Shown: positions 23,008-30,752 of the stretch, one piece after another
How positions within the stretch are numbered: the stretch's first letter is position 1
How the letters are laid out: the number at the start of each line of letters is the position of its first letter
Source: an uncultured Clostridia bacterium
GTDB lineage: Bacteria > Bacillota > Clostridia > Christensenellales > Borkfalkiaceae
Reading direction: 5' to 3'
NCBI GenBank assembly: GCA_947626305.1
Contig: CANQRP010000001.1
Span: 1 to 54,682 of the forward strand
Length of the DNA stretch: 54,682 bases
Program-made: the position numbers and the translations under genes
The notes under the pieces: model-generated
What the model saw: only the letters and a program-made list of their open reading frames with translations
Databases searched by the model: none
What the model was told of the DNA's origin: nothing

Positions 23008-23991
23008 TTATTGCAGAGCGACGCCCGCGGCACAAGCGATGAGCGGGTAGTCGATCGACTCTTTGGAACTGTTCCCTTCGAAGAACTCGCTCATGTCGGT
23101 CAGTTGGATGGGAAGAGTGCCGCGAAGGGTATTCATGAGCGCTTCGTTATGGGCGCCGCCGCCGCAACAGTGCAGGTGCTCGAGGTCGCTTCCGCCGTTG
23201 AAGCGGTAGAAGTTGATCGCTTTGAGCACTTCGAGCGCCATGGCGCCGTAGATGGTGCGGCAGGCGTCGAGGTCATTTGCGCCGTTGTTGTTGTTTTCGC
23301 GATAGGTCGCCGCCATGTAGGTGTCTACCCCGAAGTGTTCGGAGATCACCTCATCGAGCGCGTTGCAGCCGTAGTCGATGACGCGGACGCCCTCGAACAG
23401 GGTGCCGTCGTACAAAAAGAGCTTAACGGCGTTGTGCCCGATATCGAGGATGCCGTGGTGGTGGGAAGTATCCTTTGCTCTTTTGAGCAGGTTGACGTAG
23501 GAGAACTCCTCGGGGATGATGGTTTTGAGCTTGAAGCCCGCCTTTTTGAACATGGAGACGTAGTCCGCCACCACTTCCTTGCGCGTTGCGGCGGCGAGAA
23601 CGTCGAATTCGGGCGGACGTTCGTCTTCGTAGCGGACGGCGTTGAGCACTGCGCAGTCGAAGAAATAATGGCTCTTGTCGTCCGTGATGAAGTCGCGGAA
23701 GCCGTAGGGAAGGTTGAACATGAGCTGTTCGCGGGTATTTGCCGCAACAAAGAAACGGCGGCAATAGCAAAGCGGCGCGGGAAGGATGAGGGCGGCGTTG
23801 CGGGTAGGCAACTTCTGCGTGCGGCGGATCTCTTTGAGCGCGTCGGTCATCGCCTCGTAAGAGACGATGGTCCCGTTCTTCACGAGGTCGGCGGCAACGC
23901 GCACGGTGTACCCGCGCACAATGGAGCCCTTCTTCTGGACCGCGATGTGAACCGCATGATTCCCGATATCGAAACCGATGCAATTTTTCAT
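23008..23991 (-). CDS. pilM: type IV pilus assembly protein PilM (actin-like ATPase fold)
   Basis: MKNCIGFDIGNHAVHIA..., second phosphate-binding block HHHGILDIGHNAVKL, late GGGA motif. Confidence 0.85.
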   Translation of the reverse strand: MKNCIGFDIGNHAVHIAVQKKGSIVRGYTVRVAADLVKNGTIVSYEAMTDALKEIRRTQKLPTRNAALILPAPLCYCRRFFVAANTREQLMFNLPYGFRDFITDDKSHYFFDCAVLNAVRYEDERPPEFDVLAAATRKEVVADYVSMFKKAGFKLKTIIPEEFSYVNLLKRAKDTSHHHGILDIGHNAVKLFLYDGTLFEGVRVIDYGCNALDEVISEHFGVDTYMAATYRENNNNGANDLDACRTIYGAMALEVLKAINFYRFNGGSDLEHLHCCGGGAHNEALMNTLRGTLPIQLTDMSEFFEGNSSKESIDYPLIACAAGVALQ

Positions 23992-24006: not shown

Positions 24007-24786
24007 TTATGTTAATAGAGAAAGATACCAAGTGAGGATCTCGCCGCCCGCGAGCAGCGTAAAGAGCGCCGCAAGCACGATGGCGGGACCGAAGGGGAAC
24101 TCCTTGTCTTTCCCCTTTCGCACGGAGAAAGAGAGGAGGAGCCCGATGACGCACGCCGCAAGGAGCATCAGCACCCCTTGGGCAAGCCCCGTATAGAGCC
24201 CGAGCATGGCAAACAGTTTGATGTCGCCGCCGCCGAGGCTCTCCTTTTTGAGGAGGAAGTCCATCCCGAGCGAGAGCAACAGCATGCCGCCGCCGAGGAC
24301 GAGGGCGCCCAAAATTGCGTCTTGAGCGCGGGAGGCGTGGTCGCCGCAGAGATAGAAGAAGGCGGCAAACAGCACCACCCCGTAGAGCACGAGCCCATCG
24401 GGGATCTCCATGGAGTCGCGGTCGATGAGGGCGACGGCAAGGAGGGCGGGCAGGAGCATGAGGTATTCGAGCGTGACGAACGAGAAGCCGAAGCGCAGGA
24501 ATACGGCGAGGTAGACGAAGGCGGACACGAGCTCCGTAAAGAGACAGCGGATGGGGATGGGCGCGCCGCATTTTCGGCATCTTCCGCGGAGGAAGAGGTA
24601 GCTGAAAATGGGGATGAGGTCCAAAAAGCCCAGCGTTCTGCCGCAGGCGGGGCAGTAGCTTCTGCCTTTGAGCACGCTCTGCTTAGCGAGATAGCGATCG
24701 GCGGCGCAGGTAACGAAGCTGCCCATACACGCGCCGAACAGGAACGCAAGGATCCCGATATATATTTGCAATAAGAGCATAGTCAA
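24007..24786 (-). CDS. pilD: prepilin peptidase (A24 family)
   Basis: N-terminal zinc-finger CPACG...CRKCG. Polytopic. Catalytic-Asp contexts IDRDSMEIPD and GGGDIKLFAMLG. Confidence 0.9.
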   Translation of the reverse strand: MTMLLLQIYIGILAFLFGACMGSFVTCAADRYLAKQSVLKGRSYCPACGRTLGFLDLIPIFSYLFLRGRCRKCGAPIPIRCLFTELVSAFVYLAVFLRFGFSFVTLEYLMLLPALLAVALIDRDSMEIPDGLVLYGVVLFAAFFYLCGDHASRAQDAILGALVLGGGMLLLSLGMDFLLKKESLGGGDIKLFAMLGLYTGLAQGVLMLLAACVIGLLLSFSVRKGKDKEFPFGPAIVLAALFTLLAGGEILTWYLSLLT

Positions 24787-24924
24787 GGCGCCTCCTTAGG
24801 AGGAGCTGTCACCGCAGGTGACTGAGGTGGTGATGATTCGGAAGCAAAGGGCACCACCCCCCTACCCCCCTCCTTGGAGGGGGCTCCTGATTGCGCCGCT
24901 CCAATCCTTGGAAGGGGCGCTTCA

Positions 24925-24970
24925 CCCAATGTCATAACACACGCAGGGGGGCGGGGGTTATGACATTGGG
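24925..24970. repeat. 14-bp perfect inverted repeat in the pilA-pilD spacer
   Basis: cccaatgtcataac - 18 nt - gttatgacattggg. Confidence 0.7.
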
Positions 24971-25061
24971 GGGCAAAAATGCCCTCCGTTGTCCCTCCGC
25001 TGCCGCCGCATCCCTTCATCCCTGTCCGACGGCGCGGAGAGTTAAGTTCGTTTTAATTCTA

Positions 25062-25544
25062 TTATGACGCAGTTCCTGTTTTCAGATTGGTAATGGTTAT
25101 GAAAACAGTAACATCATAACCACCGGCATCATTCTTCACGCAAGAATCAACAGCAGTTTCTGCAAGCGAACCAGAGGATACCTCATCCCCGGATGCTTTA
25201 ACAACCTCGACTTCTACAACATTGCCGGAAGCATCAATTTTACCGGTCGCTTTCCAAGGTCCTTTCAAAGCCCAAGAATAAGGTGTCTTAGTGCCGTCGC
25301 CCTCAAGCGTATAAATGGCATCGGTTGCGTCTAAAGCCGCTTTTGTGGTCGGTTCATAATTCAGAATTTCAACAACAGCAGCACCACGAACGGCACGGAT
25401 GTTTGCATCTTCGGTCGCTTTTTGCGCTCTAGTCAAAGCGCTCACAAACAGCGGAACTGCGATGGCAACGAGGACGGCGATGATCGCGACAACGATCAAA
25501 AGCTCTGCAAGGGTAAAGCCCTTGCGATTGTTTCTTTTCAACAT
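25062..25544 (-). CDS. pilA: type IV major pilin (prepilin N-terminal cleavage/methylation domain)
   Basis: Class III signal MLKRNNRKG|FTLAELLIVVAIIAVLVAIAVPLF with Glu at +5. AAGGAG RBS. Visibly lower GC than the flanks. Confidence 0.9.
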   Translation of the reverse strand: MLKRNNRKGFTLAELLIVVAIIAVLVAIAVPLFVSALTRAQKATEDANIRAVRGAAVVEILNYEPTTKAALDATDAIYTLEGDGTKTPYSWALKGPWKATGKIDASGNVVEVEVVKASGDEVSSGSLAETAVDSCVKNDAGGYDVTVFITITNLKTGTAS

Positions 25545-25704
25545 TTTTTTTACTCCTTATAAAATCATGATTTTTATTTCTTACACCGCCGGGATGAAGC
25601 AGTGCTTGAAAACTTTGATTTGTGCTGTGGCGACCCCTCGACAGGCTCAGGGTAACATATTAGAATGTCAGAGTGACATAGAGCGTCAGGGTGACAATGT
25701 TCCT

Positions 25705-25780
25705 AATTGTCATGTTGAGCGGAGGCGTAGCCGCAGTCGAAACATCGCATTGGTTTTAATACTAAGGCGACCCTTCGACA
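25705..25780. repeat. GIY-YIG-island repeat unit, copy 1
   Basis: aattgtcatgttgagcggaggcgtagccgcagtcgaaacatcgcattggttttaatactaaggcgacccttcgaca. Confidence 0.85.
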
Positions 25781-25933
25781 GAAAACTGTGGCGACCCTTC
25801 GACAGGCTCAGGGTGACAGTTTTTTATGCTGTGGCGACCCTTCGACTTCGCTACTTCGTCGCTACGCTCCTCGTGCCGCCCTTCGACAACATGGAACGTG
25901 CGGGCGGGGCAGGGTGACATATTAGAGCTCCCA

Positions 25934-26008
25934 AATTGTCATGTTGAGCGGAGGCGTAGCCGTAGTCGAAACATCGCATTGGTTTTAATACTGAGGCGAC
26001 CCTTCGAC
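25934..26008. repeat. GIY-YIG-island repeat unit, copy 2
   Basis: Same unit as copy 1, with 2 substitutions over 75 bp. Confidence 0.85.
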
Positions 26009-26055
26009 TTCGCTCAGGGTGACATATTAGAATGTCAGGGTGACATATTAGAGCA

Positions 26056-26355
26056 TCAGGGTGACAAATTGGGTGGCGCGTTGGGCATCAACTCTTCCCA
26101 TTTGGGATTGAGCGTTCTTATTAAACTTTGCTTCCTCTCTCGCTTCCACCCTTTTAACTGTTTTTCTCTGTGAATGGCTTGCTTTATATCGTTCCACTCC
26201 TCGCAATATACGAGTTTGTGCAAATGATATTTCTTGGTAAATCCGTCGATCTGTTCCGCACGATGTTCACCTATGCGGCGGGCAAGATCGTTTGTTACAC
26301 CAATGTATAATACACTATTGAAATCGTCTGTCAAAATGTATATATAGTATGGCAT
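26056..26355 (-). CDS. GIY-YIG nuclease family protein (UPF0213-like)
   Basis: MPYYIYILTDDFNSVLYIGVTNDLARRIGEH...KQAIHREKQLKGWKRERK. AT-rich. The 3' end runs into the flanking repeat family. Confidence 0.85.
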   Translation of the reverse strand: MPYYIYILTDDFNSVLYIGVTNDLARRIGEHRAEQIDGFTKKYHLHKLVYCEEWNDIKQAIHREKQLKGWKRERKQSLIRTLNPKWEELMPNAPPNLSP

Positions 26356-26384
26356 AACTTTTATACCGCCATGTTTTTGTTCTC

Positions 26385-26482
26385 AATTGTCATGTTGAGC
26401 GGAGGCGTAGCCGCATTATGATTGTCATTCCGAGCGTAGTCGAGGAATCGCATTATTTTTAATACTGCGGCGACCCTTCGAC
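26385..26482. repeat. GIY-YIG-island repeat unit, copy 3 (composite)
   Basis: The first 30 bp are identical to copy 1. A variant core follows, attgtcattccgagcgtagtcgaggaatcgcatt, and then the shared tail. Confidence 0.8.
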
Positions 26483-26524
26483 AGGCTCAGGGTGACAGTT
26501 AGAGCGTCGGGTGACAGTGTTCCT

Positions 26525-26600
26525 AATTGTCATGTTGAGCGGAGGCGTAGCCACAGTCGAAACATCGCATTATTTTTAATACTAAGGCGACCCTTCGACA
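26525..26600. repeat. GIY-YIG-island repeat unit, copy 4
   Basis: Same unit as copy 1, with 3 substitutions. Confidence 0.85.
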
Positions 26601-26644
26601 GGCTCAGGGTGACATAGAGCGTCAGAGCGGACAAATTGAGGGCA

Positions 26645-27862
26645 TCAGAAGCCGCCGGCGCCGGCAGACATGCTGAAGATCGGTACGTAGATCGCTATGA
26701 CGATAAACCCTACCACTACACCCAATATGATTGTGATCATCGGCTCGATCATGCCAAGCGCACGGTCGGACGCGGTGACGGCTTCGTCGTTATAATACAA
26801 CCCGATGGTGCGCAGCGTGTCTTCCAACATACCAGAACTCTCCCCCACCGTGATCATTTCGATGAGCATGGAGGGCAGATATTTGGAATCTTTGAGCGCT
26901 TCGCCCAAACTCATGCCGCTCTCGAGCTTGACGATCGCCTCGTTGAGCTCCTTGCCGACGCAACGGCTATCTACCACGCGGCTGACAATATCGAGCGCAC
27001 GCGTTACGGGCAGCCCCGCCGCAAGCAACGTTGCCAGCGTGTTTGCCGTCTGCGCCGCGGCGTTGAAGCGGGTGATCTTGCCGATCACGGGCATCTTCAT
27101 GCGAATTTTGGAATACGCCATCTTTCCGCTCTCGGTTTTGCCGATGAAGTAGATCGCCAAAATCACCGCAACGATAATGGCAATGAGCAGCCACCACCAA
27201 TGCGAGAAGAAGTTGGAAATGGCAATGAGGATGCGGGTGATGAGCGGAAGCTCGGTGCCGAAAGACGTCAACGTCTCGGTCATCCGAGGGACGAGCACGA
27301 CCATGACGACGCCGATGACGACGATCGCCAACAGGAGCACGATGATAGGATACGTGAGCGCGGAACGAATTTTCTTCTGCGTTTTTGCGGCGCGTGCGTA
27401 ATACTCTTCGAGGCTTTGGAAGGACTGCTCCAAAGTACCTGATTCCTCGCCCGCGCGCACCGTTTCGATGAACACGGCGGGGATCTTTTTGCCGTTTTTC
27501 TCCAAACTGTTGGCGAGCGAATAGCCCGCGGCGACGTCCGCCGCGCTCGCCCGCAGATAACGGCGCATGAGCTTGTCGTCACACTGTTCGGCAATGAGCT
27601 CGATGGTGCGGGACATGGTAAGCCCCGCTTTCAGCATGATGAAAAATTGGTTCGCCGTAAGAGACAACGTTTTGTTGCTGACCCAGAGCGGCTCGTTGAT
27701 GTCGATATTTACGCGCCGTTCTTTGCGCACGGGCTTGATGGATTCCACCACCGCATAGCTCTTGCGTATTTCGTTGACTGCTTCAAACTCGTCGTACGCT
27801 TCGACTACGCCGTTTACTGTGGACCCGTCCTGCGCGATCGCACGGTACTTATATGTCTGCAT
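26645..27862 (-). CDS. pilC: type IV pilus platform protein PilC (GspF family)
   Basis: 405 aa. Duplicated GspF-type domain, three TM blocks, N-terminus MQTYKYRAIAQDGSTVNGVVEA typical of PilC. Confidence 0.9.
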   Translation of the reverse strand: MQTYKYRAIAQDGSTVNGVVEAYDEFEAVNEIRKSYAVVESIKPVRKERRVNIDINEPLWVSNKTLSLTANQFFIMLKAGLTMSRTIELIAEQCDDKLMRRYLRASAADVAAGYSLANSLEKNGKKIPAVFIETVRAGEESGTLEQSFQSLEEYYARAAKTQKKIRSALTYPIIVLLLAIVVIGVVMVVLVPRMTETLTSFGTELPLITRILIAISNFFSHWWWLLIAIIVAVILAIYFIGKTESGKMAYSKIRMKMPVIGKITRFNAAAQTANTLATLLAAGLPVTRALDIVSRVVDSRCVGKELNEAIVKLESGMSLGEALKDSKYLPSMLIEMITVGESSGMLEDTLRTIGLYYNDEAVTASDRALGMIEPMITIILGVVVGFIVIAIYVPIFSMSAGAGGF

Positions 27863-27927: not shown

Positions 27928-28977
27928 TTAAAATACGTTTTTGCGAATAAACTCGGGGTCGTGTGCCGCCGCTTTTGCCGTTTCCGCCGAGATCGCCTTC
28001 TGACGGTAGAGGGCGATGATGGAATTGTCCATCGTGACAGACCCTTCCGCCGCGGAAGTTGCCATGGAGCTCGCGATCTGCGGGGTCTTGCCCTCGCGGA
28101 TGAGGTTGCGGATCGCGGGAGTGACCATCATCAACTCGCACGCCGCCACTCTTCCGCCGGTCTTGCGGGGCAACAGCTGTTGGGAAAGCACCGCCATGAG
28201 CGTGGTGGAAAGCTGCATTCTGATCTGCTTTTGCCGCATTTCGGGGAAAACGGAGACGATACGGTCGATCGAGTCCGGTGCGGAATTGGTGTGCAACGTG
28301 GCAAATACCAAGTGACCGGTCTCCGCCGCCGTGAGCGCCGTCTCGATCGTGTCGAGATCGCGCATTTCGCCGATGAGAATGACGTCGGGGTCTTCACGCA
28401 AGATCGCCCTCAGACCGCTGCCGTAGCTCTCGGTGTCCGCCCCGATCTCACGTTGGTTGATGACGCACTTGTCGGGTTCGTAAATGTACTCGATGGGGTC
28501 TTCCAAAGTGATGATGTGGGCGTTTTCGGTATGGTTGATGCGGTTGAGCATCGCCGCGAGCGTGGTGGATTTACCGGAGCCCGTTTCGCCCGTTACCAGC
28601 ACGATGCCGCGGTTGAGCCCGGGCAACGTCTGCACCATGGGCGGAAGACCGAGCGTGTCGAGCTCGGGGATCTTATCCGAAAGGATACGGATCGCCGCCG
28701 AGACCGAACCCTGCTGGCGGAATAAATTGATACGGCAACGAATGTGCCCCGGGAAGGTGAGCGCGAGGTCGAGCTCCCCCATTTTTTCGATTTTTGTGTA
28801 CTCCGCACCCGCCATTTCCCGCGCGTAAAACTCGCAGTCGGCAGCGGTAAGCGGAGCGCCGAAGTTCTGAAGCTGACCGTCGATCCGGATCCGGGGGGGC
28901 AAATTGCGCACGAGGTGAATATCGGACGCGCGCATGTCTCTCGCCTGCGCGATCAACCTGTTGAGTTCCATCGGCAT
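27928..28977 (-). CDS. pilT: type IV pilus retraction ATPase PilT
   Basis: 349 aa. ASDIHL, Walker A GETGSGKSTT, Asp box, Walker B ILIGEMRD, His box ATLHTNSA. Confidence 0.95.
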   Translation of the reverse strand: MPMELNRLIAQARDMRASDIHLVRNLPPRIRIDGQLQNFGAPLTAADCEFYAREMAGAEYTKIEKMGELDLALTFPGHIRCRINLFRQQGSVSAAIRILSDKIPELDTLGLPPMVQTLPGLNRGIVLVTGETGSGKSTTLAAMLNRINHTENAHIITLEDPIEYIYEPDKCVINQREIGADTESYGSGLRAILREDPDVILIGEMRDLDTIETALTAAETGHLVFATLHTNSAPDSIDRIVSVFPEMRQKQIRMQLSTTLMAVLSQQLLPRKTGGRVAACELMMVTPAIRNLIREGKTPQIASSMATSAAEGSVTMDNSIIALYRQKAISAETAKAAAHDPEFIRKNVF

Positions 28978-29051: not shown

Positions 29052-30752
29052 TCAACCGAGGTCGGCATTGAGCACGCCGAGCGCCTCTTCCGCCGAGGTG
29101 ATGCCCGCAAGCACCAATTTGCGGCAACTCTCCCGCAGAGTGGAGAAGGTGCCCTGTTTTACCCCTTCTGCAAGCTGCGCGGTGTGATGACCTTCCGCGA
29201 TCGCGCGCTTGAAGTCCTTATCGAGCAGCAAAATTTCGAATACGCCCGTCCGCCCGACGTAGCCGGTGTGATAGCAGTGCGGGCAACCCTTGCCGCGGTA
29301 GAAGCGGACGTCTTCCGCCGTTTCTTCGCACCCGAGCGCCGCGAGCACCTCGGGCGAGGGGGTATAAGCCTCCTTGCAGTGAGGGCAAATGCGCCGCACC
29401 AACCGCTGGGAGATCACGCCGTTGAGCGCGTCTGCGATCATGTAGGGCGCCACGCCGATGTCCACCAAACGATCGATCGCGGAGAGCGCGTCGCTCGTAT
29501 GCACGGTGGAGAGCACCAAGTGACCCGTGATCGCCGAACGAACGGCGATCTCCGCCGTCTCGCCGTCACGGATCTCACCGATGGCAATGATGTCGGGATC
29601 CTGACGGAGGATCGCGCGCAAGCCTTCCGCAAAGGTCATGTTGACTTTTTCGTTGATCTGAACCTGATTTACGCCGTCGATGTCGTACTCGATGGGGTCT
29701 TCCAAAGTGACGAGGTTGACTTCGTCGGTATTGAGAGAACGGATCATCGTGTACATCGTGGACGATTTGCCCGAGCCGGTCGGTCCCACAATGAGGACCA
29801 TGCCGTGCGCGGCGGAGAGCAGGCGATGATATTTTTCGAGATTTTCGCCTTCGAGACCAATGGCGTGCGCGTCGAGCAGCTGCGCGGATTTATCGAGCAG
29901 ACGGACGACGACCTTTTCCCCGTACATCGTGGGGATGGTGGACATACGGAGGTCGATATTGTGCCCTTTTACGAGGACGTTTGCACGACCGTCCTGCGGG
30001 ATGCGGGACTCGGCGATGTCCATTCCGCCCATGATCTTCAAGCGGGATACCACCGTGCGTTTGAGCTCGTCGGGTACGGTCAGCACCGTGCGCAACTTGC
30101 CGTCGATCCTCATGCGGACGACGACTTCATCCGCGCGGGGTTCGATGTGCACGTCGCTCGCGCGTTCGGAGGAAGCGCGTTCCAGAATGGAATTAACGAG
30201 GCGGACGGTGGGCGCGGATTGCTGCGTCTCTTCCGAGACCTCTTCGCTGTGGGGACGGGCGGACGCCGCCGTGTCGCGGGCGTTCGTGTCGCCGCGCATC
30301 TCCTCGATGGCACGCGCGACCCCCTCGTTGCCGTAGAGGGTGGAGATCGCCTTGTTCACCGCCACCGTAGTGGCGATCTTGGGCAAAATGCGCTTACGCG
30401 TTGCCGTACGGACCTCTTCGAGCGCGACGAAATTCAACGGGTCGGACATTGCAAGCGTGAGCTCGTCTTTATTGAGCCGTACGGGAACAACGCCGTGCCG
30501 ACGCGCAATATTCTTGGGCACGAGCGAAGCGAGCTCGATGGGGATGCGCACTTTGGAAAGATCGATGAAATCGATCCCGAGCTGCATCTCGAGCGTTTCG
30601 ATGAGGAGTTGTTCGTTGATGATGCCCTCTTCGATCAGAATCGTACCGAGACGCTCGTGCTTGGTCTTTTGCAATTCAAGCGCCTGATTAAGCTGTTCCT
30701 GCGTGATAGCACCATTGTTGACGAGGATATCGCCTAAACGAAAGTATTCCAT
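29052..30752 (-). CDS. pilB: type IV pilus assembly ATPase PilB (GspE family) with N-terminal MshEN-type domain
   Basis: 566 aa. Walker A GPTGSGKSST, ILRQDPDII, tetracysteine CPHC...CPHC. N-terminus carries two RLGxx..G....L...L..Q motifs. Confidence 0.95.
   Translation of the reverse strand: MEYFRLGDILVNNGAITQEQLNQALELQKTKHERLGTILIEEGIINEQLLIETLEMQLGIDFIDLSKVRIPIELASLVPKNIARRHGVVPVRLNKDELTLAMSDPLNFVALEEVRTATRKRILPKIATTVAVNKAISTLYGNEGVARAIEEMRGDTNARDTAASARPHSEEVSEETQQSAPTVRLVNSILERASSERASDVHIEPRADEVVVRMRIDGKLRTVLTVPDELKRTVVSRLKIMGGMDIAESRIPQDGRANVLVKGHNIDLRMSTIPTMYGEKVVVRLLDKSAQLLDAHAIGLEGENLEKYHRLLSAAHGMVLIVGPTGSGKSSTMYTMIRSLNTDEVNLVTLEDPIEYDIDGVNQVQINEKVNMTFAEGLRAILRQDPDIIAIGEIRDGETAEIAVRSAITGHLVLSTVHTSDALSAIDRLVDIGVAPYMIADALNGVISQRLVRRICPHCKEAYTPSPEVLAALGCEETAEDVRFYRGKGCPHCYHTGYVGRTGVFEILLLDKDFKRAIAEGHHTAQLAEGVKQGTFSTLRESCRKLVLAGITSAEEALGVLNADLG

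Follow-up and report, generated by a model that had tools for sequence, protein, structure and literature searches.

Nucleases that consist of a lone GIY-YIG domain and act on single-stranded DNA (ssDNA) were described in 2025 as the Ssn family (Chenal et al. 2025, PMC11893778). SsnA of Neisseria meningitidis, a 94-aa single-domain GIY-YIG protein (CDD cd10448), binds the NTS hairpin as ssDNA only, and not as double-stranded DNA (dsDNA), RNA or the reverse strand, and it cuts a few nucleotides upstream of the hairpin. The mutants Y6A, Y17A and E64A still bind but no longer cut. Cutting is controlled by the three bases 5′ of the palindrome (GTC) and binding by the C just 3′, with loop identity being dispensable. 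About half of the dRS3 copies are NTS; NTS clusters adjoin membrane and host-interaction genes in N. meningitidis, and without ssnA transformation by NTS-bearing DNA is about 5-fold higher. Three further homologues cut beside their own repeats. Among homologue loci, 71% have at least one such motif (SRM) and 42% have SRMs on both sides, and the arrangement NTS-ssnA-NTS was likened by the authors to insertion sequences (IS) and to REP/RAYT systems (PMC11893778). Here we consider a stretch of 54,682 nucleotides from an uncultured Clostridia bacterium (contig CANQRP010000001.1; the whole stretch is called the window), in which the spacer between the pilus genes pilC and pilA is occupied by a repeat island of about 1 kb and a small GIY-YIG gene, here called ssn. 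The sequence comparisons make it very probable that the island is an Ssn/SRM locus, composed of an Ssn-family nuclease gene and its cognate hairpins. The locus thus adds a further case to a known system; it is not a new type of element. New here are a hairpin subtype missed by the published pattern, the origin of the hairpin doublets and a hotspot in a pilus operon.

The nuclease and its hairpin motif

The ORF at 26056-26355 on the minus strand is the only one of this family in the window. It is intact and encodes a protein of 99 aa in which the GIY-YIG domain (Pfam, E 8.7e-15) spans residues 3-75, the sole further Pfam match being the overlapping T5orf172. The chain ends about 15 residues beyond the catalytic core, and Y6, Y17 and E64 are invariant in A3, an alignment of 16 sequences with the window protein among them. 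AlphaFold models the protein as one compact domain (pLDDT 91), with UPF0213 (1zg2; sequence E 0.004, Foldseek E 9e-5) and Slx1 as the nearest folds. Identity to the 94-aa SsnA orthologue of N. gonorrhoeae, which is located within an NTS array of CGTCATTCCCGCGCAGGCGGGAATC repeats, is 46% over 85 residues (pairwise BLASTP E 2e-23), and tblastn in a 7.3-Gb database matches this orthologue at E 5e-14. The published homology limit for SsnA, E < 1e-10 (PMC11893778), includes the window protein when the N. gonorrhoeae orthologue is taken in place of NMV_0044. The Neisseria homologue sits among dRS3 repeats, which connects the window protein with the published Ssn system. Relatives at E <= 1e-3 number more than 1,500, mostly on contigs shorter than 2 kb; the closest is 86% identical and lies on unplaced contigs (L120/L121), and another copy, 73% identical, adjoins surE elsewhere. 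A scan for defence systems gave only weak and partial PADLOC matches to the GIY-YIG domains of larger proteins, and membership of a defence system was rejected for that reason.

The gene differs from its surroundings in base composition, with a GC content of 42% compared with 55.6% for the window and 56-60% for pilB, pilT, pilC and pilD. The last codons of the ORF (..TTG TCA CCC TGA) are a repeat head, about eight codons overlap the repeat in all, and the stop codon sits in the first of two tandem half-sites. The tail following ..EELMP is 4-7 residues longer than in most aligned relatives.

The repeats share a common motif, (T)GTCA followed by a 5-bp variable stem, GAGC..CGA, the complementary stem strand and TC, which occurs on both strands. 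On the gene strand a 29-bp unit reads TGTCA-CCCT-GAGCCTGTCGA-AGGG-TCGCC. On the other strand the core of a 75-bp unit reads TGTCA-TGTT-GAGC..TCGA-AACA-TCGC, with the variant TGTCA-TTCC-GAGCGTAGTCGA-GGAA-TCGC. Because the 29-bp unit is the reverse complement of the hairpin motif within the 75-bp unit, the island is built from one motif in two orientations, and the 75-bp unit is a tail-to-tail doublet of two hairpins with an AT-rich spacer of 16-17 nt. The original prediction, made from the letters and their reading frames, had listed the main components, and these were recovered: the AT-rich 99-aa GIY-YIG ORF; four copies of the long unit, of which those starting at 25705, 25934 and 26525 are full (2-4 substitutions apart) and that at 26385 is truncated; six copies or variants of GGCGACCCTTCGAC, to which a partial seventh at 25766 can be added; a variant core in the third copy; the 3′ end of the nuclease ORF running into a repeat; and the splitting of pilC from pilA by an island whose nuclease gene has the orientation of the pil genes, all on the minus strand. 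With up to two mismatches, GGCGACCCTTCGAC occurs seven times in the window, always inside the island, compared with 0.88 expected. With up to one mismatch, CAGGGTGACA occurs 15 times (10 in the island, 5 elsewhere), compared with 1.9 expected for the whole window.

A covariance model, R1, was built from hairpins beside homologues in other phyla and run unfiltered over the whole window. It gave nine matches, all within 25630-26616, eight of them at E 3e-8 to 4e-4 and one at E 0.24, and the remaining six listed matches all had E above 3. Eleven whole or truncated hairpin copies surround the gene. The pil strand has six hairpins, including one with a loop insertion of about 60 nt and one that is degenerate, and the other strand has three full hairpins, one variant and one truncated copy. 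There are also one isolated 3′ half and seven half-sites, each a hairpin head with about 10 nt of flanking sequence; four half-sites form two tandem 21-nt pairs. From the pilC side to the pilA side, with H2 denoting the 29-bp type and H1 the hairpin of the 75-bp core, and with R1 scores in brackets, the features are:

26615-26635, minus strand: degenerate half-site at the pilC-side edge of the island, starting 10 nt after the pilC stop codon
26586-26614, minus strand: hairpin H2 no. 1, with the 29-bp sequence given above (28.4 bits, E 2e-4)
26526-26568, plus strand: hairpin H1 no. 1, stem TGTT/AACA, loop 12 nt larger (30.1 bits, E 8e-5)
26526-26614: tail-to-tail doublet of H1 no. 1 and H2 no. 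1, 89 nt, folding at -15.4 kcal/mol (z -3.2)
26498-26516, minus strand: half-site with head TGTCACCC (lacking the T before GA) and flank, no 3′ arm
26469-26497, minus strand: hairpin H2 no. 2 (27.1 bits)
26421-26451, plus strand: variant hairpin H1′, stem TTCC/GGAA, loop GAGCGTAGTCGA, the best match of the island to the cross-phylum consensus (45.1 bits, E 3e-8)
26424-26449: variant core GTCATTCCGAGCGTAGTCGAGGAATC
26388-26415, plus strand: truncated H1 reduced to its 5′ arm and loop; on the gene strand it immediately precedes the ssn start
26056-26355, minus strand: ssn-like gene
26025-26066, minus strand: two tandem 21-nt half-sites (TGTCACCCTGA plus YRYTCTAATA), the first giving the ssn stop codon
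25995-26024, minus strand: hairpin H2 no. 3, loop GAGCGAAGTCGA (42.9 bits, E 1e-7)
25935-25977, plus strand: hairpin H1 no. 2, forming a doublet with H2 no. 3 (30.1 bits)
25833-25919, minus strand: H2-type hairpin with a loop insertion of about 60 nt, the same expanded-loop form as in L120
25790-25818, minus strand: hairpin H2 no. 5 (27.1 bits)
25766-25784, minus strand: isolated 3′ half of an H2 hairpin
25706-25748, plus strand: hairpin H1 no. 3 (30.1 bits)
25658-25696, minus strand: two tandem half-site units
25629-25657, minus strand: degenerate H2 hairpin with a TGTTA head, the last unit before the native pilA leader (14.7 bits, E 0.24)

Stem pairing was examined in 80 homologue loci (L001-L080) from Clostridia, Bacteroidota, Spirochaetota, Patescibacteria, Chloroflexota, Proteobacteria, Verrucomicrobiota and others. 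Every GTCA-N4-GAG-N4-8-CGA-N4 was taken irrespective of pairing, which avoids circularity. All four stem pairs form in 60 of the 104 instances defined by these anchors, compared with 19% when the 3′ arms are shuffled among instances, and the instances that fall short are mostly register variants or truncated copies. The fully paired stems represent 16 different combinations, and GTCA and TC are near-invariant over 89 instances. The two hairpins of one element bear different stems, each complementary to itself, such as TTCT/AGAA and TCCT/AGGA in a Patescibacteria element or TGTC/GACA and CATC/GATG in Treponema zioleckii. Two other identities of the motif were rejected. A hammerhead-like reading, CUGAG..CGAA, fails on inspection because the CU is not conserved (GAG follows stems such as TTCC and TGTC) and the core has unsuitable lengths. 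For a palindromic dsDNA operator of a dimeric protein, the arms should not vary and covary as they do, and the conserved GAG and CGA are not mutually complementary. The loops accept insertions of 40-60 nt, some with stems of their own (window 25833-25919, L021, L030, L062, L082, L087, L120), which fits the published dispensability of loop identity and the separate supply of the two stem halves (PMC11893778).

The hairpins are concentrated at the gene. In the 80 homologue loci R1 found 239 matches in 60 loci, with a density of 5.8 per kb in the first 100 nt from the gene, 3.3 per kb between 100 and 250 nt and about 0.1 per kb at distances above 500 nt, an enrichment of about 50-fold between the nearest and the farthest class. 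The commonest layout, seen in 20 loci, places a sense hairpin upstream of the gene at 13-60 nt and an antisense hairpin downstream of it at 4-70 nt, giving a canonical element of about 360 nt with the ends TGTCA...TGACA. The association of repeats and nuclease that had been suspected from this one locus thus extends to relatives across phyla, in a family that binds such hairpins and cuts beside them (PMC11893778). In the reverse direction, 120 loci (L123-L242) were picked by the exact 23-nt hairpin GTCACCCTGAGCNTGTCGAAGGG, and only 3 of them have the gene within about 4 kb, at hairpin-gene distances of 18, 18 and 166 nt. Therefore gene-less copies are many and genes few. The hairpins in these 120 loci are often tail-to-tail, 22-29 nt apart. 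The identical 23-nt sequence is found in at least ten phyla, among them Nitrospirota, Eremiobacterota, Bacteroidota, Alphaproteobacteria and Clostridia; this is too much alike for vertical descent and suggests either strong constraint from the protein or horizontal spread.

Compared with Ssn/NTS, the locus shares a single-domain GIY-YIG protein of about 94-99 aa with Y6, Y17 and E64, and repeats that are clustered at the gene and scattered elsewhere, almost always intergenic and beside surface-protein genes. The hairpin itself is different. NTS has a 9-bp ATTCCCGCG palindrome, whereas the window motif has the 5-bp variable stem and then GAGC..CGA, possibly a tandem G.A pair with a mini-loop. 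This subtype dominates the 80 closest homologue loci, 60 of which match the GAGC..CGA model while 14 match the published pattern, HGTCWYN(0-2)YYVSBRHN(0-5)WNVSBRGN(0-2)RNCYNB (PMC11893778). Eight or nine of the 20 loci without an R1 match bear classical long-palindrome hairpins, and the Neisseria NTS reaches only about 20 bits on R1. The hairpin type is accompanied by a protein signature: GAGC..CGA loci mostly have T9-N10 and K/R74, long-palindrome loci and Neisseria SsnA have A9-S10 and W74, and the window protein has T9, D10 and R74. The proteins beside classical-type hairpins partly cluster together. Since the comparison is between 55 and 8 sequences uncorrected for relatedness, the signature is a lead on specificity and is taken as nothing firmer.

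Several observations weigh against assigning the island to this system. The published SRM pattern has no match in the whole window, compared with nine in a Neisseria control run with the same script. For that reason membership of the window hairpins in the motif class rests on the features they share with NTS, which are the GTCA head, an A-T closing pair and the TC tail, and on their association with the gene. The four characterised Ssn homologues are from Gram-negative bacteria (PMC11893778), whereas the window host is a Gram-positive gut anaerobe. The window gene also lacks the canonical SRM-ssn-SRM layout, its nearest hairpins being antisense upstream (26421-26451 and the truncated 26388-26415) and sense downstream (25995-26024), a reversed order found in 2 of 60 loci. 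Finally, nearest-neighbour DNA parameters give single hairpins no greater stability than shuffled sequences (z -1.1 to +0.7), and it is the covariation that supports a stem-loop. We regard this energy result as uninformative rather than negative, because the parameters give no bonus to tandem G.A pairs or GNA triloops.

If the enzymology of the four homologues applies here, each motif would fold into a short hairpin whenever the DNA becomes single-stranded during replication, repair or uptake. The protein would bind this hairpin, depending on the GTC and the C that adjoin the stem on its 5′ and 3′ sides respectively, and would cut the motif-bearing strand a few nucleotides upstream. As sites are present on both strands of the window, either strand could be cut, while dsDNA, RNA and the complementary strand of a motif would be no substrates.

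Doublets, half-sites and the build-up of the island

The closest homologues show how the doublets arose. On the two small contigs L120 and L121 the gene-bearing unit reads H2 -> GCAGTGTTAAGAATAACT-ATG ... TGA-TGAGTTGCAGAATAA <- H1, and neighbouring doublets read H2 -> GCAGYGTTAA(GAAT/AACC)AA <- H1. Both ends and the subterminal bases of doublet and gene-bearing unit are equal, here and in L082. Because the doublet spacer equals the sequence that flanks the gene on both sides, the gene-less doublets are, as judged by these alignments, derivatives of the gene-bearing unit from which the gene has been deleted. The canonical layout is found in L120/L121, in L122 and in L082. The window gene sits between doublets, with a truncated antisense hairpin upstream and sense half-sites downstream, so that its own ends have been lost by rearrangement. 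On these comparisons the basic unit is hairpin -> ssn <- hairpin, loss of the gene leaves a tail-to-tail doublet of 75-90 nt, and doublets and fragments then accumulate locally. The window gene has remained intact while repeat rearrangement stripped it of its canonical flanking hairpins.

Half-sites are not confined to the window. In Treponema zioleckii (L010, 2860-2960 and 3370-3500) tandem 21-22-nt arrays, each unit composed of flank and the 5′ half of a hairpin, precede full hairpins. Seen in two unrelated phyla, half-site arrays are therefore a recurrent by-product of the repeat and not a local oddity. Repeated rounds of cutting and repair, or slippage of replication at the hairpin, may have left them behind.

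The pilus operon and its spacers in relatives

The island lies in a pil cluster on the minus strand with the order pilB, pilT, pilC, a 1.1-kb spacer, a type IV pilin gene, a prepilin peptidase gene and pilM:

29052-30752, minus strand: pilB
27928-28977, minus strand: pilT
26645-27862, minus strand: pilC, two T2SSF domains (E 6e-55)
25062-25544, minus strand: type IV pilin gene (pilA, major pilin), N_methyl domain
24007-24786, minus strand: prepilin peptidase gene (pilD)
23008-23991, minus strand: pilM

The spacer between pilC and pilA holds the island with its GIY-YIG gene. The island starts 10 nt past the pilC stop codon on one side and on the other side stops before the conserved pilA leader. 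Sequence scans of the pil strand detected no intrinsic terminator-like site within the island; directly before pilA they showed no sigma-70-like site, and a weak promoter-like site was seen upstream of ssn at 26443-26415. Transcripts from pilC could therefore possibly read through ssn into pilA.

Outside the island on the pilA side, the minus strand has a conserved stem-loop at 25584-25604, which precedes the pilA start by about 45 nt and is also found before pilA in L082-L100. The loop sequence (T)TCATCCC is invariant; the stems vary yet remain complementary over 12 relatives, with compensatory changes in five of the six pairs. The structure is tandemly duplicated in L098-L100, is not found in more distant pil loci and has no Rfam match. 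A scan of 25000-27200 against Rfam at E <= 10 gave nothing better than E 0.36, the three listed matches being chance snoRNA matches. As a candidate element, the stem-loop may serve cis regulation or processing of the major pilin mRNA.

Relatives were sampled over about 8 kb around pilC. Those with PilC identities of 70-86% are all metagenome-assembled genomes (MAGs) of rabbit-gut Clostridia, and the more distant ones are Oscillospiraceae. In at least seven relatives (L088, L090, L093, L095, L098, L100, L116) the pilC-pilA spacer is about 90-125 nt long and free of repeats; in seven others (L082, L083, L084, L086, L087, L092, L094) it contains hairpins. The junction that the original prediction wanted compared among relatives is thus empty in several and occupied in others. 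L082 and L087 have ssn in this spacer as well, encoding proteins 59% and 65% identical to that of the window, and L086 has ssn (51% identical) between pilA and pilD. Hairpins also occur in the pilT-pilC spacer (L083, L094) and the pilA-pilD spacer (L082, L084, L086). The window protein is closer to copies from other places, 86% for those on unplaced contigs and 73% for that beside surE, than to the copies in orthologous pil spacers. Empty and occupied spacers, together with these closer off-locus copies, argue for turnover or repeated arrival and not for simple vertical descent. Presence and absence of the element are seen at species level only. Exact-pattern scans of genome and metagenome contigs gave no member of the same species with an empty site, and an exact PilC look-up was also empty.

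Other repeats are present in the pilC-pilA spacers of relatives, namely a direct repeat of about 50 nt, GGAGCAACTTGCTTCCCCCTCTGGGGAGCCGAGG, in L084 (4720-4800), and units of the TGTCATACCGAGCGTAGCGAGTGTATC type with a shifted stem register in L086 (4720-5230). Among relatives the pilin is 37-74% identical (mostly in the N-terminal part), PilC 70-86% in the closer ones and the prepilin peptidase 55-67%. Some relatives in the L082-L116 comparison have two tandem pilin genes.

Possible roles of the element

In its host the system could act as a selfish IS-like element, or it could modulate recombination around the variable pilin gene; the two roles may also be combined. A selfish or homing-type element had been proposed for the island. 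The first half of this proposal holds up, in that a selfish, IS-like origin is plausible given that the doublets are exact deletion derivatives; the second half does not, for reasons given below. A more specific form of the IS-like reading is that hairpin-ssn-hairpin is an active or recently active transposon with Ssn as an ssDNA transposase, that the doublets resemble miniature inverted-repeat transposable elements (MITEs) mobilised in trans, and that the island is a pile-up of insertions at a preferred site. This is possible, if on the unlikely side. Inverted hairpin ends bracket a single small gene, and the gene-less doublets have the ends and subterminal sequence of the gene-bearing unit. 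The identical 23-nt hairpin is spread over many phyla, mostly without ssn nearby (3 of 120 with it) and often in tail-to-tail pairs; orthologous pil spacers are polymorphic for presence and absence, and ssn lineages disagree with the locus. Homologues are mostly found on very short contigs, like multicopy repeats. The resemblance to IS and REP/RAYT, already noted by the Ssn authors (PMC11893778), is close in architecture. The REP/BIME (REPIN)-RAYT systems of Proteobacteria also have a short hairpin whose 5′ tetranucleotide is conserved, inverted doublets, ssDNA recognition, a single-copy nuclease gene bracketed by inverted hairpins and many gene-less intergenic copies, but the enzyme here is a GIY-YIG protein (GIY-YIG and T5orf172 being its only Pfam matches) instead of an HUH/Y1 enzyme of the IS200/IS605 type, and the hairpin sequence is unrelated. 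However, no target-site duplication was visible and no insertion site was definable at the solo elements examined (L072, L004), Ssn has been shown to cut only, and to our knowledge strand transfer or joining is not known for any GIY-YIG domain. Exact-pattern contig scans gave no near-identical genome pair differing by one insertion, and at least the window copy of the gene, being without canonical ends, could not be mobilised as a unit. The transposon reading agrees with that of an Ssn/SRM locus and does not exclude it. Neither does it exclude a function for the host, in which Ssn would cut incoming or exposed ssDNA beside the SRM cluster, shorten homology and so uncouple the variable pilA from the conserved assembly genes, with ssn perhaps co-expressed with the pilus operon. 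We consider such domestication unlikely. It parallels the proposal for NTS clusters beside Neisseria surface-protein genes, where loss of ssnA gives the roughly 5-fold rise in transformation (PMC11893778). A similar setting is known from the NIME of Neisseria, in which blocks of 50-150 bp are split by short inverted hairpin repeats (dRS3) near pilin and surface-protein genes; the organism and hairpin subtype differ, and the window blocks are mostly hairpin doublets and half-sites and not RS blocks. All SRM matches in the 54.7-kb window are in the single spacer upstream of pilA, those of relatives are in the pilT-pilC, pilC-pilA and pilA-pilD spacers and bracket pilA in L082, L084 and L086, and pilA is far more divergent (37-74%) than pilC (70-86% in closer relatives). 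In addition, all four occupied loci with an ssn gene have it in the orientation of the pil genes, an agreement that chance would give in about 1 of 8 cases. This uncultured Clostridium is not known to be naturally transformable, and the pilus is of the PilB/T/C/M type and not a ComG competence pilus. Pilins are hypervariable also where the spacer is empty (L088, L093, L095), and the spacer pattern of SRMs in relatives holds for about 8 kb around pilC.

The homing-type reading takes the gene for a free-standing GIY-YIG homing endonuclease gene of the I-TevI/Seg type with dsDNA targets, spread by double-strand breaks and gene conversion. The catalytic fold, the intergenic position, the foreign base composition and the patchy occurrence among relatives are as in I-TevI and the T4 Seg enzymes. 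In GIY-YIG homing enzymes of this class the catalytic domain is joined to a separate DNA-binding domain, whereas the window protein is the catalytic domain alone. It scores 17.5 bits, over 30 matched residues, on the group I intron endonuclease model (NCBIfam TIGR01453) with its cut-off of 56 bits, and tblastn gave no match in 50,697 phage records, a result on which a phage origin was rejected. Neither a phage nor an intron context was found. The conserved site is a stem-loop with covarying arms and not a long asymmetric duplex site, and the characterised Ssn members act on ssDNA only, being inactive on dsDNA (PMC11893778). Homing in this sense is therefore extremely unlikely. It is also very unlikely that the order and number of repeats are an assembly artefact, produced by collapse or by chimeric joining of dispersed repeats. 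Two short ENA contigs (sample ERZ27249596, possibly from the same source as the window) match 25912-26940 at 99.9% and 24785-25866 at 100%. These short-read contigs break in the island at 25866 and 25912, leaving 25867-25911 without a second assembly, and relatives' contigs often end in the pilC-pilA spacer too. Yet the two contigs reproduce the island save for these 45 nt, both unique flanks included, and similar islands with the same unit types are present on long contigs of related MAGs (L082, L086).

The above readings can be combined. The system would then be a mobile element that works through ssDNA and belongs to a new enzymatic class, the GIY-YIG equivalent of REP/RAYT and IS200/IS605; with its MITE-like doublets it would have repeatedly colonised pil spacers in gut Clostridia; the co-oriented ssn would be expressed with the pilus genes, the hairpins would shape recombination at the hypervariable pilin, and the GAGC..CGA subtype together with T9-N10/K74 would represent a second Ssn specificity class missed by the published motif. 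As a whole this combination is speculative and rather doubtful. Irrespective of it, annotators obtain an explanation for repeat islands that break assemblies and yield spurious small ORFs, and each pair of hairpin and protein is a candidate for a new ssDNA cutting specificity for users of such enzymes. The published pattern misses the dominant subtype, and genome surveys that use it therefore undercount the system. The locus places an Ssn/SRM system in an uncultured Gram-positive gut anaerobe, and the derivation of the doublets, with pil spacers that are empty, hairpin-only or differently occupied, bears on the mobility of the element.

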